64,000 nucleotides of DNA from Patescibacteria group bacterium (GTDB lineage: Bacteria > Patescibacteriota > Patescibacteriia > Patescibacteriales > UBA12465). A program made the translations under genes and the position numbers. Location: the NCBI GenBank assembly GCA_028705215.1, contig JAQWDY010000002.1, positions 24,759-88,758 of the forward strand, in the 5' to 3' direction. A model generated the notes under the pieces. The model did no database searches, was not told the origin of the DNA, and worked only from the letters and a program-made list of their open reading frames with translations. Position 1 is the stretch's first letter; the number at the start of each line of letters is the position of its first letter. Positions 1,913-42,132 of this stretch are shown here, one piece after another.

Positions 1913-4900
1913 TTATTGAGCCAGTGTGCTTTGATAAAGATTAGCTATTTGTAAATCACTTAAAGTGCCCTCCCAAATTGAAATATCGTCCAGTTCCACT
2001 TTATTAAGTTCTGATCGAATATTTAAATTATTCGGCTCTTCTCCATCTTTAATCCATATAAATGGTAGACTTCTTTTTTGCTGACCATCAACATACATTT
2101 TTAATATGTAACGATAAGAGTCATAGGTGAAAGTAAAATAATGCCAATTATCATCATTGGGAAGATCAACATCGAGTCCTTCGCTAAAAATGCCATATAT
2201 TCCATTAAAATAGAATGAGCGACGATAAGGGGCCGGAGCAAAAGAAAATTTATCATGGTTATTATAACGTAGAGAAATTAAAGAGCGACCATCATCATCA
2301 CTATTGCGCCACCAAAAAGCTAAAGATAAATCCTTACCTTGTATACTTTCTGGAAAATTAACAACAATATCTTTTTCCCACCTATTTTTAATTCCCGTAT
2401 TATCTTCACCGCGCCATATCCACTCATTATCACCAATATCTAAAACCAGACCATTTATTTCATCAACCGCCTCTTTGCCTCCACCGCTATTTATTAATTC
2501 TGTCCCCTCATTAAAATCCCAATAATATTTCAACTCAGGCGCCTTTTGGGTTGGCCTTTCATTATAAGGAGCAAAGGGGGCTTGAGCTTGTATTTGATTA
2601 TTTATATCCGCATTAGTTAAGGGGACAGAAAAAATAGCAAATTCATCGATTGCCATAGAGTCCATATCCCCCCATATTTCTAAAGTAGAATAATTATTAG
2701 GTAAGTTTTGAATGAATTCTTCACGATAAGTTTCAACCCCGTTAAAATATACCGCCCAATAATTTTGCGCCTCGTTAATAACCAAAGCGAAATGTTGCCA
2801 AGAATAATCTTCTCCGGTAAAAACTGGGGTATTATAATAGCGCCATTTAGAATTGGGCAAATTTTCTATCTGCAATAATTTTTTCTGTAACTCTATTGAA
2901 ACAAATTGATTTTCTGGATTTTTAAAAACAATATTTAATTTTGGTGAAGCGTTACTAAGATAGGTATTATCTTTAAAATAAAAACTAAGCGTAAGGTTAT
3001 TTAAATCAAGTGGTGTTTCTAAATTTTTTTCATATTTACTATGTCTAAAACCAAATTCAGCAGCACAGTCAAATTTTCCAATTGTATATGAATTCTCACC
3101 ATAGCATTCATCATAATGATTTAATAAAATCAAATCTGAATTTATAATTGGCTCCGGAAAAAGAAAGGGAGAAAAATTTGAGTTTTCTTCAGTCTCTTCT
3201 TCGACTTCAGTATTTTCCTCAGTCTCTTCTTCGTTTGCCAAAGGCGGCTCTTCTTCAACCCCTTCCCCTGTTTCAATTTCACTTTCTGCTTCCTCCTCAG
3301 TTTCTGTGTCAATAATATAGTCATCCCAAACTATACTCGGATCAGCTGAGGGGAAAAGTTTAAAATCAATTTTATTATTATTTGAAGAAGAAATGCGGTC
3401 TAAATAATAATTATCAAATATTTCTGGCGCTGGCTCCTCTCCTAAATAAAAGTGAGCATTGCCAAACCCTAGCACATCAATGATATCTTCATCAGCGCTA
3501 CTACTGATTGCACCTTTTCCCAAATACAACGTATACCCGTTGCCGGTAAAACCAAATTCATTTCTTTTAACAATAGCGTCTGCTCGAGATAAAAAATAAT
3601 TACTAGCATCATCTCGTACTAATAAATAATAGCCACGGGCCTTAATTTTGGTTCCCCCGGGATAAATTGCATCTTCTTCTTTACCAATACGAACGGCTAT
3701 GCTTGGATTTTCTGCGGTCTTCGTCTTTTCAATACGAAAACCAGCCTCAGCTAAATCAAAGTCGTAATTAGTGGGATTATATAATTCAATAAAATCATTC
3801 ATGCCAGTTGCGTAAACTTTGCTAATTAAAGCAGTGGGCGTAAAACTCGGCACAGAATCATTAGAAACATTTTCAATATTAACCGATTCAGGCTCTTGAC
3901 CACTACCTATCTTAGAGTTTTGTATAACAACACTTGAAACATTATCTTTTATTTCATTATTTGTTTCAATTTCTTGTTTTTTTACTGTTATTTTTTGCAA
4001 TAAATCTACTTTTGTCTGAACTTGTTTTTCTGGCTCCTTATCTTCTAAATTGTCACTATTTTTTATAGCTTTTACTAATGTATCGTCATTTTTGTTTTTT
4101 TGCTCTTTCTCTTTTTTTTCATCTATTTCTTCACTAATGATCGATTTGGCACTTATCTTAGAATTTTTGTCATCCACAATTTCATTAGACTTTAACTCTA
4201 AAACAACATCATTATTTTTCTCATCTTCAATATCTGAATAATAATCATTTTCATCTATTTTTTGTTCATTAAAAACTAAATCGGTAGAATTTTTTTTAAA
4301 AATTTTATTCACTACTTTTTTAGCATTTGTACTAATTATGGAAATAGTATTTTTTATAGATGACATTGGATTGTTAACCAAGCTCCATCTAAGCATTAAA
4401 CTGATAATCGGAGTCTTTCCTCTTATTTTCTTATCTTCAAACGAGGAGCTTATTTCCACATTAACAGGCACATCCTTTAAAGTGGGTTGCAAATATTGAG
4501 TATAGGGAATAAAAAAATAGCGCTCTCCTTTATATTCTCGCCCTGCATTAAAACCAACTTTTTCGGGAAAAGGTAATACTAAATCTTTTCGTCGTGAAAT
4601 CATTGAAAACTCCCTTGTTTTAGAAAAACAATCACCATCAGCATTTACAAAACTACTATTATCAAAACCATCTGGAGTAATATCTATTGCGTAACGAGAC
4701 TGATCATATTCAAGGTCACTTAAATTATTAGGATTTAAAATATTAGCGCTTTCATATATTTTTTCAATCAAACCGACACAAGTCCAATCACCATCACCAG
4801 CTCCTTTTTGTTTTTGGAAATTAAAATCATAGGCAAGATTTAAATTGGCTAAATTTTTTGCAATTTTAACCACTTTGATTTGTTGAGCTGTTGTTAGCGC

Positions 4901-7911: not shown

Positions 7912-8598
7912 TTAATTTTTTTTAACAGAGATTAGATTTTTTTTAATGGATTCAAGAACCAAGGCAATAGTCTTGGTGGCATCATCATTTGCCGGAATTG
8001 GATAATTAACTAATTCCGGATTTACGTTTGTATCGCAAATTGCAATAATAGGTATATTTTTTTGAATCGCTTCCTTAACCGCTGTTTCTTCCTCTTTTAT
8101 ATCCCAAATAAAAAGAGCATCTGGCAATTTATTTAAACTAGCTAAACCGCCAACTCTTTCTCTTAACTTATTAATTTCTCGATCAAATTCTAATCTTTCT
8201 TTTTTTGTATATTTTTCCAATCGACCAGATTCTTTTTTCTCTACTAAATCAAGATATTTTTTAACTGATTTTTTTACTATCGGAAAATTAGTTAAATATC
8301 CGCCTAACCATTTACCCACTATATAGGGTTGATTAATTTCTTCTGCCATTTTCTTCATTGGACCAGATACTTGGTTTTTAGTACCAACAAATAAAATGTG
8401 TTTTCCCTCAGAAACAAGTTTGATCATAAACTCTAAGGCCTCAACTAACTTTCTCTGACTTTTTTTTAAATCAATAATATAAATATTATTTTTTGCGGTA
8501 AAAATGAATTGCTTCATTTTTGGGTGCCAACGGTTGGTACGATGACCAAAATGCATACCAGCCTTAAGCATTTCTTCCAAAGTTGGAATGTTTTTCAT
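7912..8598 (-). CDS. rpsB: 30S ribosomal protein S2
   Basis: LEEMLKAGMHFGHRTNRWHPKM and IICDTNVNP-type motifs. The longest ORF starts at a TTG (8634). ATG 8598 gives MKNIPTLEEML. Confidence 0.95.
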   Translation of the reverse strand: MKNIPTLEEMLKAGMHFGHRTNRWHPKMKQFIFTAKNNIYIIDLKKSQRKLVEALEFMIKLVSEGKHILFVGTKNQVSGPMKKMAEEINQPYIVGKWLGGYLTNFPIVKKSVKKYLDLVEKKESGRLEKYTKKERLEFDREINKLRERVGGLASLNKLPDALFIWDIKEEETAVKEAIQKNIPIIAICDTNVNPELVNYPIPANDDATKTIALVLESIKKNLISVKKN

Positions 8599-9503: not shown

Positions 9504-9965
9504 TTAATAATGATAGTTTTTATTATTAACAATGGTAACAGCTCGATATATTTGTTCAAGAATTATAACTCGTGCCATCTCGTGCGTGAATGTAAATTCT
9601 GATAATGAGAGTGACTTATATTTTTTCTTCATTGCTGAAGAAAATCCTAAAGAGCCAGCAATGACAAAAATAATTTTTTGACTATCTAGCTTATCTAAAA
9701 TTTGAGCAAAACCAAGAGAGTCTAACTTTTTTCCCTGCTCTGTTAAAAGAAATACCTGTCCCTGTGATCTAGCAATAGCCTCTGTAATACGCGCCTCCTC
9801 TTCCGCTATCACCCTTTTGGAATTATTTTGTGTAAAAGGAGTAAATTTTAACTCCTTTATTTTAATACTGGCAAATGGCTTTAATCTTTTTAAATATTCA
9901 CAAGCAGCCTCATTCCAATAAGAAGTTTTCATTTTGCCAATCGCTATTATCTCTATATCTAACAT
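9504..9965 (-). CDS. rlmH: 23S rRNA (pseudouridine1915-N3)-methyltransferase RlmH (SPOUT)
   Basis: 153 aa. It has the typical N-terminus (IEIIAIGKMK) and C-terminus (FTFTHEMARVIILEQIYRA). Confidence 0.9.
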   Translation of the reverse strand: MLDIEIIAIGKMKTSYWNEAACEYLKRLKPFASIKIKELKFTPFTQNNSKRVIAEEEARITEAIARSQGQVFLLTEQGKKLDSLGFAQILDKLDSQKIIFVIAGSLGFSSAMKKKYKSLSLSEFTFTHEMARVIILEQIYRAVTIVNNKNYHY

Positions 9966-38829: not shown

Positions 38830-38868
38830 AAAAAAGATAATAAAAAGCTCGCTTTTTAAGGCGAGCTT
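38830..38868 (-). terminator. intrinsic terminator
   Basis: Minus strand AAGCUCGC-CUUAAAAA-GCGAGCUU followed by UUUAUUAUCUUUUUUUU. Confidence 0.75.
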
Positions 38869-38876
38869 AATGCTTT

Positions 38877-39344
38877 TTAGATTAATTCTAAAAGTGAGAC
38901 CTTGTCGTAGGTTTTGCGAAAAATTTGAATTACAGTTTTACCCTCCCTTTTGGCAACAAAGGGGATAACTGACAAAAAATCATTAATTGGATAAAGTGTT
39001 CCAGCACGAAAGGCTCTTAATCTTTCCTGGCAGACTGGATGTTTGCAACAGGTTAACTTAATAGTAGTTGTGCCAACATTAGGAAGAAGAAAAAAGTGAA
39101 CCTTGTTTTTATGACAAAAGGGACATTTTTTATTTACCTCCAAATTCCTGATTTTTTGCCGTAGGCGATAAATCGCTAATTCCAATTTTTCATCTTTTCT
39201 TACACTATCATCATAACGATAAAGGTAAAAACGACTATAAACCTGACCAACATAAAAAGGATCGTTAATAAAAACCCACTCAAGACTTTTGTTTTTATAT
39301 CTTCCACTAGAGAAAATATAAGACTCATTTACTTTTTTTCCCAT
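38877..39344 (-). CDS. hypothetical protein with a Cys-rich (zinc-ribbon-like) segment
   Basis: 155 aa, with CPFCHKN ... CCKHPVCQ. I recognise no family. Confidence 0.45.
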   Translation of the reverse strand: MGKKVNESYIFSSGRYKNKSLEWVFINDPFYVGQVYSRFYLYRYDDSVRKDEKLELAIYRLRQKIRNLEVNKKCPFCHKNKVHFFLLPNVGTTTIKLTCCKHPVCQERLRAFRAGTLYPINDFLSVIPFVAKREGKTVIQIFRKTYDKVSLLELI

Positions 39345-39407
39345 TATTAAATTGTTTTTGGTGCTGATTCTAATCTAACATAAAATAGCTAAAAAAGTCA
39401 AGGTAAT

Positions 39408-39543
39408 AAAAAAGGGCTGGAATCACTCCACCCCTTTATTGCGAACACCTTTTTAGCGTTCTTAATGTTATTTAACCACATCATTACATCAATCTCACTC
39501 AAGCCAGTCTTGGTTAAATTAACATATTAGCACATTAACAATT
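39408..39543 (-). ncRNA. candidate small structured RNA or cis-regulatory leader (unclassified)
   Basis: It is bounded by a near-consensus promoter (39550-39578) and an intrinsic terminator (39408-39437). Two internal helices are visible, one with a G-U pair that exists only in the minus-strand RNA. There is no credible ORF. Confidence 0.4.
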
Positions 39544-39549
39544 AGATTC

Positions 39550-39578
39550 ATTCTAAAACAAGTAAAACAAATTGTCAA
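39550..39578 (-). promoter_or_regulatory. near-consensus sigma70 promoter (TTGACA-17-TAGAAT) with no ORF behind it
   Basis: On the minus strand, TTGACA (39578-39573), a 17-nt spacer and TAGAAT (39555-39550). Confidence 0.5.
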
Positions 39579-39639
39579 TATTTATAAGCTAAAAAATTAA
39601 CAATTCGCAGAAAATAGCAAAACGGGTTATAATTAATAA

Positions 39640-40257
39640 ATGCTTGATTTAAACACAGAAAGAAAAATAATAAATAACGGTTACCCTCTAATAGGTGGTA
39701 TTGACGAGGCGGGTCGCGGCCCCTTAGCAGGACCAGTGGTGGCTGCCTGTGTTGTTATAGACGCAAATTTTAATATAGACAATAATGATTTAGCGCTAGT
39801 AGCCGATTCAAAAACCTTAAGTCCAGCAAAAAGAAATGCCCTTTTTAAAATAATTAAAGATAATGTTTTGGCAGTAGAAATTGGGGTTGTTGATAATGAT
39901 ATAATTGATAAAATAAACATCTTACAAGCCAGTTTTTTAGCCATGCGTCGCTCTTTAAAAAAAATCCCGCTAAAGCCGGATTTCATTTTAGTCGATGGCA
40001 AGCTCCCTATTCCTCGCATTACAACTCCACAAAAAGCAATTATTGGTGGCGACAGTAATACCTGGGTAATTGCCGCTGCCTCTATTATAGCTAAGGTAAG
40101 TCGTGATTGGCTAATGACTGAATTTCATAAAAAATACCCTGAATATAATTTTGAAAAACACAAAGGATACGGCACAAAAGAGCATATGCGAGCCCTTTTA
40201 AAATTTGGCCCCTGCCCTATTCATCGCCTATCTTTTGCCCCCTTAAAAAAAGATTAA
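39640..40257 (+). CDS. rnhB: ribonuclease HII
   Basis: GIDEAGRGPLAGPVVAA and DSK, plus full-length similarity. Confidence 0.93.
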   Translation: MLDLNTERKIINNGYPLIGGIDEAGRGPLAGPVVAACVVIDANFNIDNNDLALVADSKTLSPAKRNALFKIIKDNVLAVEIGVVDNDIIDKINILQASFLAMRRSLKKIPLKPDFILVDGKLPIPRITTPQKAIIGGDSNTWVIAAASIIAKVSRDWLMTEFHKKYPEYNFEKHKGYGTKEHMRALLKFGPCPIHRLSFAPLKKD

Positions 40258-42103: not shown

Positions 42104-42132
42104 ATTATAGTTAAATTCTATAATTCTGTCAA
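42104..42132 (-). promoter_or_regulatory. perfect-consensus sigma70 promoter (TTGACA-17-TATAAT) upstream of typA
   Basis: On the minus strand, TTGACA (42132-42127), a 17-nt spacer and TATAAT (42109-42104). Confidence 0.65.

Follow-up and report, generated by a model that had tools for sequence, protein, structure and literature searches.

Introduction

RybB, OmrA/B and MicA in enterobacteria and RoxS/RsaE in Firmicutes are trans-encoded small RNAs (sRNAs) that carry their seed at the 5' end and finish in a Rho-independent terminator. To our knowledge, no sRNA family has been described for the Patescibacteria or Candidate Phyla Radiation (CPR), and a search of the literature found none for these bacteria. 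Their regulatory RNAs appear almost uncharted, and the organisms are uncultivated. Here we describe a candidate sRNA gene found next to rnhB, on the minus strand of a 64-kb stretch of DNA from a Patescibacteria group bacterium (contig JAQWDY010000002.1, assembly GCA_028705215.1), which we call the window throughout. The analysis covers this window and the rnhB-adjacent loci of relatives, designated by L-numbers, and all of its evidence comes from sequence.

With the sRNAs named above the candidate shares the organisation of a stand-alone intergenic gene with its own strong promoter and a length within 100-200 nt. It also has a conserved unpaired 5'-proximal segment, internal hairpins and a 3' stem-loop followed by a U-run, and it shows the same fast turnover outside the conserved segment and the same narrow taxonomic range. 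Judged by Rfam, it has no sequence or structural homology to any of them, and its host is an uncultivated CPR bacterium. Orphan sRNAs are found often, and this one is a new, lineage-restricted RNA of that familiar kind from a phylum that has been little explored. As a candidate RNA gene with clear limits, comparative support and a small host genome, it offers a concrete locus for the interrogation of existing metatranscriptomes.

The mechanism that we propose is as follows. A near-consensus sigma-70-type promoter would start transcription near position 39543 of the minus strand, and an intrinsic terminator would release the RNA around 39410. Between these points the transcript would consist of an unpaired 5' segment of about 20 nt, a long hairpin with a large loop and a short hairpin with an A-rich loop, ahead of the terminator itself. 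It would not be translated, nor would it serve as a leader to the gene that follows, which has a promoter of its own. The unpaired 5' segment, and perhaps also the loop motif AUGUAAUGAUG, would pair with at least one mRNA encoded elsewhere in the genome, as other bacterial sRNAs that end in a terminator do. That the RNA is made, where exactly it begins and ends, and that it acts by pairing in trans are points that we infer. We consider it probable that the unit is a genuine non-coding RNA gene. The fuller statement, that it is a free-standing sRNA gene of about 135 nt which also acts in trans by base pairing, is offered tentatively and falls a little short of an even chance. The free-standing sRNA is supported because its promoter and terminator recur in a sister species, equivalent units occupy the same place in nine further relatives, purifying selection is apparent, the helices are kept and no open reading frame (ORF) is conserved.

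A promoter, a predicted structured RNA and a terminator next to rnhB

The unit lies in the 295-nt gap (39345-39639) between rnhB and the minus-strand gene of a 155-aa Cys-rich protein. An initial annotation of this DNA had described this gap, and the sequence features that it listed were all found where it had placed them (Table 1). The promoter that it had noticed on the minus strand, TTGACA-17-TAGAAT, is confirmed and matches 11 of the 12 consensus positions. On the two strands of the 64 kb there are just two matches to the pattern TTGACA-N17-TAnAAT, against 0.20 expected from shuffled sequences. A TTGACA hexamer, a 17-nt spacer and a -10 element of the TAnAnT type also precede each of the ten related units presented below. 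The second occurrence of the pattern in the window is the promoter of typA (TTGACA-17-TATAAT, 42104-42132, minus strand), about 60 nt upstream of that gene.

About 105 nt of structured sequence separate the promoter from the intrinsic terminator. The hairpin of the latter, AAAGGGGUGGA-GUGAU-UCCAGCCCUUU, extends from 39437 to 39411 and is followed by a U-run that reaches 39408. The terminator proposed by the initial annotation is thus present, with the addition of a G.G mismatch in the stem that had not been recorded and that probably explains why a simple terminator scan missed it. In all relatives, too, a U-run comes after the terminator hairpin, whose dG lies between -9.6 and -20.7 kcal/mol.

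The sequence of the unit is more structured than chance, with a folding energy z score against shuffles of -4.07 on the minus strand and of -2.74 on the same strand when the terminator is left out. A consensus fold of the window and its closest homologue contains the terminator and exactly the two helices that the initial annotation had drawn. The longer of these (39523-39511 with 39478-39467) does not appear in the minimum free energy fold of the single sequence, in which a local alternative is preferred, but it is recovered in the consensus fold, where it includes a compensatory change from U-A to C-G. The shorter hairpin (39461-39443) is present as it had been drawn. Among seven contigs of the same species from other samples, three spacer positions vary (39571, 39378 and 39371) and none inside the predicted transcript, a number of variable positions too small to reach significance or to be given weight.

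Table 1. Features of the rnhB-adjacent RNA unit and its neighbours in the window, with nucleotide identity to the homologous locus L168 of the sister species
Feature	Position	Strand	Identity to L168	Remarks
-35 hexamer TTGACA of the RNA promoter	39573-39578	-		Also upstream of 10/10 related units
-10 hexamer TAGAAT of the RNA promoter	39550-39555	-		17-nt spacer; sole strain polymorphism in the promoter is spacer position 39571
Predicted transcript, about 136 nt	39408-39543	-	81% (RNA overall)	5' end placed 7 nt after the -10; 3' end in the U-run
5' single-stranded segment AAUUGUUAAUGUGCUAAUAU, candidate seed region	39524-39543	-	83%	Unpaired in the consensus fold; 19/23 alignment columns identical
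Long hairpin	39467-39523	-	5' arm 92%; 3' arm 82%	Arms 39523-39511 and 39478-39467; one bulged A; 32-nt loop; from the consensus fold with L168
Large loop of the long hairpin	39479-39510	-	62%	Last 11 nt, AUGUAAUGAUG, identical
Conserved loop motif AUGUAAUGAUG	39479-39489	-		3' end of the large loop; remainder of the loop diverged
Hairpin GAACGC-UAAAAAG-GUGUUC	39443-39461	-	83% (hairpin region)	G.U pair is A-U in L168; the plus strand would give an A-C mismatch
Intrinsic terminator	39408-39437	-	94%, 33/35 columns (terminator module: linker and terminator)	10-pair stem, one G.G mismatch, GUGAU loop, UUUUUU; dG -14.0 kcal/mol
Promoter of the downstream gene, TTGACT-18-TAGATT	39372-39401	-		TG upstream of the -10
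155-aa Cys-rich gene, zinc-ribbon-like	38877-39344	-		ATG at 39344; own transcription unit; terminator 38868-38845
rnhB and its promoter, divergent neighbour	39604-40257	+		rnhB 39640-40257; promoter TTCGCA-18-TATAAT at 39604-39633, ending 6 nt before the ATG
Third codon positions of rnhB, the Gmad2-domain gene and cysS			63%	Neutral proxy
Flanking spacer			34-43%

Conservation in the sister species

The nearest other species (P0003; loci L168 to L171, including GCA_029982795.1) has an rnhB that is 85% identical to that of the window. Its locus L168 carries a homologous unit in which the promoter TTGACA-17-TAGAAT is followed by 136 nt and then by a terminator of identical sequence, and a covariance model (CM) matches the predicted transcript of the window over its full length with 167 bits. 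Four of the 28 base pairs have changed between the two species without any loss of pairing (U-A to C-G, U-A to U-G, G.U to A-U and U.G to U-A), the first being a compensatory change on both sides of the helix. Within the 11 pairs of the long hairpin, the consensus contains the changes from U-A to C-G and from U-A to U-G, and no pair is broken. The initial annotation had proposed an alignment of homologous regions as a check on covariation; across the two species compared here, pairing is kept at four of four changed pairs.

The RNA is 81% identical between the two species and the third codon positions of neighbouring genes 63%, the changes in the helices preserve pairing, and the only ORF of the window is cut short in the sister species. 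Taken together, this comparison of two species shows that purifying selection acts on an RNA rather than a peptide.

In L168, about 60 additional nucleotides lie between rnhB and the RNA promoter (2885-2950, minus strand). They include a second TTGACA and a hairpin, GTGCAAGATGTGGGTGCAC, neither of which the window has.

Coding potential

A single ORF is found on the minus strand of the unit, at 39502-39398. As had been stated in the initial annotation, it runs through the terminator; it has 28 codons when counted from its ATG and 34 when counted from a TTG. In L168 this ORF (MMWLNN...) is reduced to nine codons. Frames, start codons and lengths all differ among the relatives, and the only stretch with any similarity is interrupted by 1-nt indels. 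In the wider family, stem changes that preserve pairing replace Gly-Gly...Pro by Ser-Arg...Arg in the only semi-conserved frame. As judged from these comparisons, the unit carries no conserved ORF.

A small protein, or an RNA with a dual function, would nevertheless require the 28-codon ORF (34 from TTG) to be translated. A purine-rich GAGUGAG lies about 10 nt upstream of a tandem ATG-ATG, immediately before an earlier AUG-UAA start-stop pair, and the relatives also have purine-rich stretches ahead of start-like codons. Against translation stand the nine-codon remnant in the sister species, the passage of the frame across the terminator, the variation of frame, start and length in every relative with radical amino-acid changes caused by stem covariation, and the lack of any Pfam match for the product. 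We regard translation of this ORF as extremely unlikely. A conserved micro-peptide, G-G-D-T-E-P, was also considered and rejected; a G-rich/C-rich hairpin explains the motif, and the swap of stem sequences in L186, the 1-nt indels and the missing start codons speak against it.

The downstream genes and the question of a leader

The initial annotation had left a choice between a free-standing sRNA and a riboswitch or attenuator of the Cys-rich protein. As a cis-acting leader, the RNA would respond to a ligand, a tRNA or a protein by stopping transcription or allowing it to read through into the Cys-rich gene and the genes Gmad2, cysS and dus. The arrangement invites this explanation. Wherever a locus is long enough to show it, the Cys-rich gene, Gmad2, cysS and dus lie downstream of the unit on the same strand; L168 and L008 have no Cys-rich gene to separate the RNA from Gmad2-cysS; and a structured RNA that ends in a terminator resembles an expression platform. 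Known riboswitch, T-box and attenuator leaders have the same outline, a structured RNA of about 100 nt with an intrinsic terminator, placed ahead of genes on the same strand, an aminoacyl-tRNA synthetase gene such as cysS among them.

Unlike those leaders, the RNA of the window is separated from cysS by a promoter and by a whole separate gene with its own terminator. The distinct TTGACT-18-TAGATT element that had been assigned to the downstream gene is indeed present (39401-39372), with a TG before its -10. An extended -10 promoter (-10 of the TGTTA(G/A)A type, -35 TTGAYT or TTTACT) also follows the terminator in L168, L172, L008, L009, L109, L179, L181, L184 and L186. A perfect bidirectional terminator stands between the Cys-rich gene and the Gmad2 gene (38845-38868), and Gmad2 is equipped with a further promoter-like site. 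Because of this terminator, the RNA, the Cys-rich gene and Gmad2-cysS-dus are predicted to be three successive transcription units in the window.

The RNA and the Cys-rich gene are also separable. They occur together in eight of the 11 RNA loci; the gene is absent from the RNA-bearing loci L168, L008 and L099, and a different gene follows the RNA in L099. Conversely, the Cys-rich gene stands beside rnhB without the RNA in L101, L105 and L177, and after tRNA-Leu in L104, L115 and L122. Folds cut after the 5' arm of the terminator gave no conserved antiterminator: the pairing partners of this arm differ in every member and L168 has none. The sequence evolves fast, unlike the core of a ligand-binding RNA, and the window RNA lacks a conserved ligand-binding or tRNA-binding core. 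No riboswitch, T-box or leader model in Rfam matches it. Because of the conserved second promoter, the separability of RNA and gene and the lack of a conserved antiterminator, a leader appears unlikely, and we would give only a small probability to it. Of the two options first proposed, the sRNA is the one supported, by the conserved promoter and terminator, the signs of selection and the kept pairing.

A T-box for cysS was considered in its own right. The terminator sequence GGGUGGA resembles the UGGN motif of T-boxes, but it is not conserved in the relatives and the T-box model gives no match.

Two observations concern the Cys-rich gene in other loci. The public gene call for L184 (328-927, minus strand) gives the Cys-rich gene 199 aa by an extension upstream, towards the RNA terminator; its homologues have about 150 aa, and the start of this call is probably over-extended. 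L008, which has no Cys-rich gene, contains at 8440-8560 (plus strand) the conserved second promoter, about 100 nt of GC-richer sequence and a strong terminator, GAGCCCGTTTCTGAAAAGAGCGGGCTTTTT, which are either what is left of the unit of the deleted gene or another small RNA.

Convergent transcription from typA

The gene typA (42044-40254, minus strand) converges with rnhB (39640-40257, plus strand) and overlaps it by 4 nt (40254-40257). A terminator scan of the minus strand from the typA stop codon to the RNA unit found no terminator-like site, the same scan having missed the hairpin of the unit itself. Transcripts of typA may consequently run antisense over the whole of rnhB.

This geometry brings back a caveat of the initial annotation, namely that the hairpin might merely terminate typA transcripts, in which case the RNA would have no dedicated function and the promoter-like site would be fortuitous or yield a short by-product. 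The hairpin at 39437-39408 would then be the first terminator downstream of typA, and the terminator is the most conserved part of the unit. Read-through from typA is geometrically possible, but it leaves the conserved promoter and the RNA body unexplained. Eleven lineages keep a perfect consensus promoter at an unchanged distance. Identity to the sister species is 82-92% in the 5' segment and in both arms of the long helix, compared with 63% for third codon positions, and substitutions in the helices preserve the structure. Moreover, RNA bodies of 100-190 nt have been kept in all relatives and not deleted from these small genomes. That the hairpin serves typA alone is in our view highly improbable.

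Equivalent units in other relatives

In the closest GTDB genomes (L008 and L009, with a typA 76% identical to that of the window), synteny is kept and a unit divergent from rnhB is found, with the promoter TTGACA-17-TATAAT or TATATT, about 180 nt and a strong terminator. A metagenome scan with rnhB and look-ups of rnhB relatives added L099, L109, L172, L179, L181, L184 and L186. Together these nine relatives carry promoter-RNA-terminator units of 157-229 nt in the same slot, and the 11 distinct units now known, all with rnhB as their constant neighbour (11/11), measure 142-229 nt when counted from the last position of the -10 through the U-run.

The nine units outside the window and its sister species are mutually linked by significant pairwise similarity (z = 4 to 74) and form an undescribed RNA family. 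Most members have the 5' motif GCUUUGUU(C/A)AU. A hairpin, P3, has a covarying stem and a loop that keeps A-N-A-N-A-G; one of its stem pairs is C-G in four members and U-A in the other five, and the share of paired cells is 97.8%, compared with 88% in shuffles. Their terminators begin with (A)AGGG(G)U. Five members of the L109 type share a multi-helix consensus with eight compensatory pairs, and their first 19 nt or so are almost invariant. In these five, conservation is highest at the extreme 5' end, where GCUUUGUUCAUAAGA is invariant (5/5) and is followed by a single A/G change. In L109 (2330-2391, minus strand), the conserved 5' motif is duplicated in tandem (TGCTTTGTTCATAGCTTTGTTCAT), with a partial copy, TAGCTTTGTA, just upstream, and the other L109-type RNAs have one copy.

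The window RNA resembles these nine units in its slot divergent from rnhB, in its strand relative to the Cys-rich gene, Gmad2 and cysS, in the TTGACA-17-TAnAnT promoter, in the order of 5' motif, hairpin or hairpins and a terminator that begins with (A)AGGG(G)U, and in the extended -10 promoter that follows. The nine differ from it in being longer, in their covarying hairpin with an A-N-A-N-A-G loop and, for most, in the GCUUUGUU motif, which the window RNA lacks. The sequence TTGTTAATGTGC is common to the window RNA and L172. Similarity to the window RNA reaches marginal significance for L172 and is not significant for the other eight. The loop UAAAAAG of the short hairpin in the window fits A-N-A-N-A-G, UAAAAAA in L168 does not, and the stems cannot be aligned. 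A CM built from the window and L168 found no further copies over 1.09 Mb; its match at 9832-9942 of the window is a coding region. The window type is thus best described as a clear RNA of two species that corresponds in position to the nine-unit family and may be a diverged member of it, common descent being at most plausible. The two clear members and the nine positional equivalents could provide the seed alignment of a new RNA family.

Possible functions of the RNA

The near-invariant 5' end of the L109-type relatives points to a seed, as it is the usual seed signature, and supports the proposal of an sRNA that would pair in trans. Several results nevertheless weigh against this proposal. 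Only one clear homologue of the window RNA is available, so that covariation support from the two species amounts to four changed pairs. Folding energy does not separate the strands, the plus strand having a z score of -3.82 against -4.07 for the minus strand. The link to the nine-member family is weak, with a local-alignment z of 2.8 to L172 only; the CM of the window and L168 (R1) matches the L172 RNA at E = 0.41, and a profile hidden Markov model (HMM) of the nine members did not find the window RNA (nhmmer). As for targets, RNAduplex comparisons of the 5' segment, the loop and the full RNA with the start regions of the 58 genes of the window, which is part of the genome, gave none that beat shuffled controls, and no consistent complementarity to the 5' ends of rnhB was found. 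Finally, the very high conservation of the terminator module would fit a protein-binding role as well.

This last point belongs to a serious rival, in which the RNA would act as a scaffold or would bind or sequester a regulator, an RNA-binding protein or the neighbouring putative zinc-ribbon protein, and not an mRNA. The most conserved parts of the RNA are structured modules (terminator module 94%, hairpin 83%). The hairpin of the wider family keeps its invariant A-N-A-N-A-G loop through compensatory stem changes, as would be expected of a recognition site. L008 and L009 have large loops or tails that are rich in purines and contain several GGA/AGGA motifs, the Cys-rich gene follows the RNA in eight of 11 loci, and the target search among window genes and rnhB 5' ends was negative. 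On the other hand, the window RNA has no clearly recognisable A-N-A-N-A-G hairpin (AAAAAG in the window, AAAAAA in L168), and GGA richness is not common to all members. The Cys-rich gene is missing from three RNA loci and present in loci without the RNA, and its product has no detectable RNA-binding domain and no known relative. We consider a protein-binding or scaffold role unlikely, while giving it a place among the explanations to be taken seriously.

Known RNA families and the tRNA slot

At gathering thresholds, Rfam 15, with its SRP RNA and tmRNA families included, has no match to the unit in the window, L008 or L009, so that the statement of the initial annotation that it resembles no known RNA family holds for this database. 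With E values relaxed up to 10, the locus and six relatives gave matches that were far below threshold, scattered and inconsistent; a sub-threshold alignment to rpsL_ricks rests on the terminator hairpin.

Other candidates were set aside as well. The window RNA resembles 6S RNA in being a small RNA of the abundant type with a strong promoter and a structure more conserved than its sequence. Unlike 6S RNA, however, which is a rod with a bubble in the middle and its 5' end paired to its 3' end, it folds into serial hairpins and a terminator, and no 6S model matches it. In L172, GUGAUGA...CUGA together with weak matches to sR2 and sR18 suggested a kink-turn or C/D-box-like element, but the geometry does not fit a kink-turn and the motif is not shared. 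A tRNA or a decayed tRNA-Leu was likewise rejected; ARAGORN was negative, no tRNA model matched and similarity to tRNA-Leu(CAG) was not significant (z <= 3.2).

This last comparison derives from the organisation of related loci. Of 43 metagenomic relatives, 27 have a tRNA-Leu(CAG) gene divergent from rnhB, with tRNA-Val(CAC) beyond it in most cases. In the surroundings of rnhB covered by the 11 RNA-bearing loci, no tRNA was found. Among L089-L130 (for example L104, 2330-2415, and L090, 2293-2377), the tRNA-Leu(CAG) gene is directly adjacent to rnhB in many loci and 0.8-1.3 kb away in some. In L104, L115 and L122 the Cys-rich gene lies between tRNA-Leu and tRNA-Val. The tRNA-Leu(CAG) genes of these sister lineages resemble the window RNA as short units of the stable-RNA type that diverge from rnhB and are often followed by the Cys-rich gene, but the window RNA has no detectable tRNA fold, model match or significant similarity to them. 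Because the RNAs lack significant similarity to tRNA-Leu(CAG), the slot looks like a case of replacement, not of tRNA decay. This swap of an RNA and tRNA-Leu(CAG) in one slot is a small, clean example of the turnover of stable-RNA genes in reduced genomes.

In most lineages the extreme 5' end of the RNA is GCUUUGUUCAU, the reverse complement of AUGAACAAAGC. One could imagine that all rnhB-adjacent units are a single fast-evolving, lineage-specific family of riboregulators that took over the tRNA-Leu(CAG) slot, that the 5' end GCUUUGUUCAU pairs with the start-codon region at the 5' end of leaderless mRNAs, and that the window RNA is a diverged and shortened member. Taken as a whole, this scenario would seem very doubtful.

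Neighbouring genes

The window comes from a genome of low GC content (33.6%), and the relatives of its typA are all metagenome-assembled genomes of Patescibacteria. The order of genes on the minus strand is hisS, typA, the RNA unit, the 155-aa Cys-rich gene, the Gmad2-domain gene, cysS and dus, with rnhB on the plus strand between typA and the RNA unit.

Four invariant cysteines (C74, C77, C100 and C105) suggest that the Cys-rich protein may be a zinc ribbon; it also has an N-terminal YxFxSGxYK...DP motif. No Pfam family reaches the cut-off, the one weak sub-threshold match being ExoX-like_C (E 0.006), no relative was found in PHROG or PDB, and a word-based protein search returned the same species only. 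Despite this ORFan-like appearance, an iterated HMM search found the family in 24 of the loci compared.

Because the -10 element of rnhB ends 6 nt before the ATG in the window (6-8 nt across genomes) and the gene has no Shine-Dalgarno sequence, its mRNA is probably leaderless. A -10-like element (TATAAT, TATACT, TACAAT or similar) is found about 5-15 nt before the rnhB ATG in most of some 40 relatives, and leaderless mRNAs appear to occur in these genomes.

No tRNA or tmRNA gene was found by ARAGORN in the whole 64 kb. The sole Rfam family found in the window is the bacterial class A RNase P RNA, at 1468-1839 on the minus strand (197 bits).

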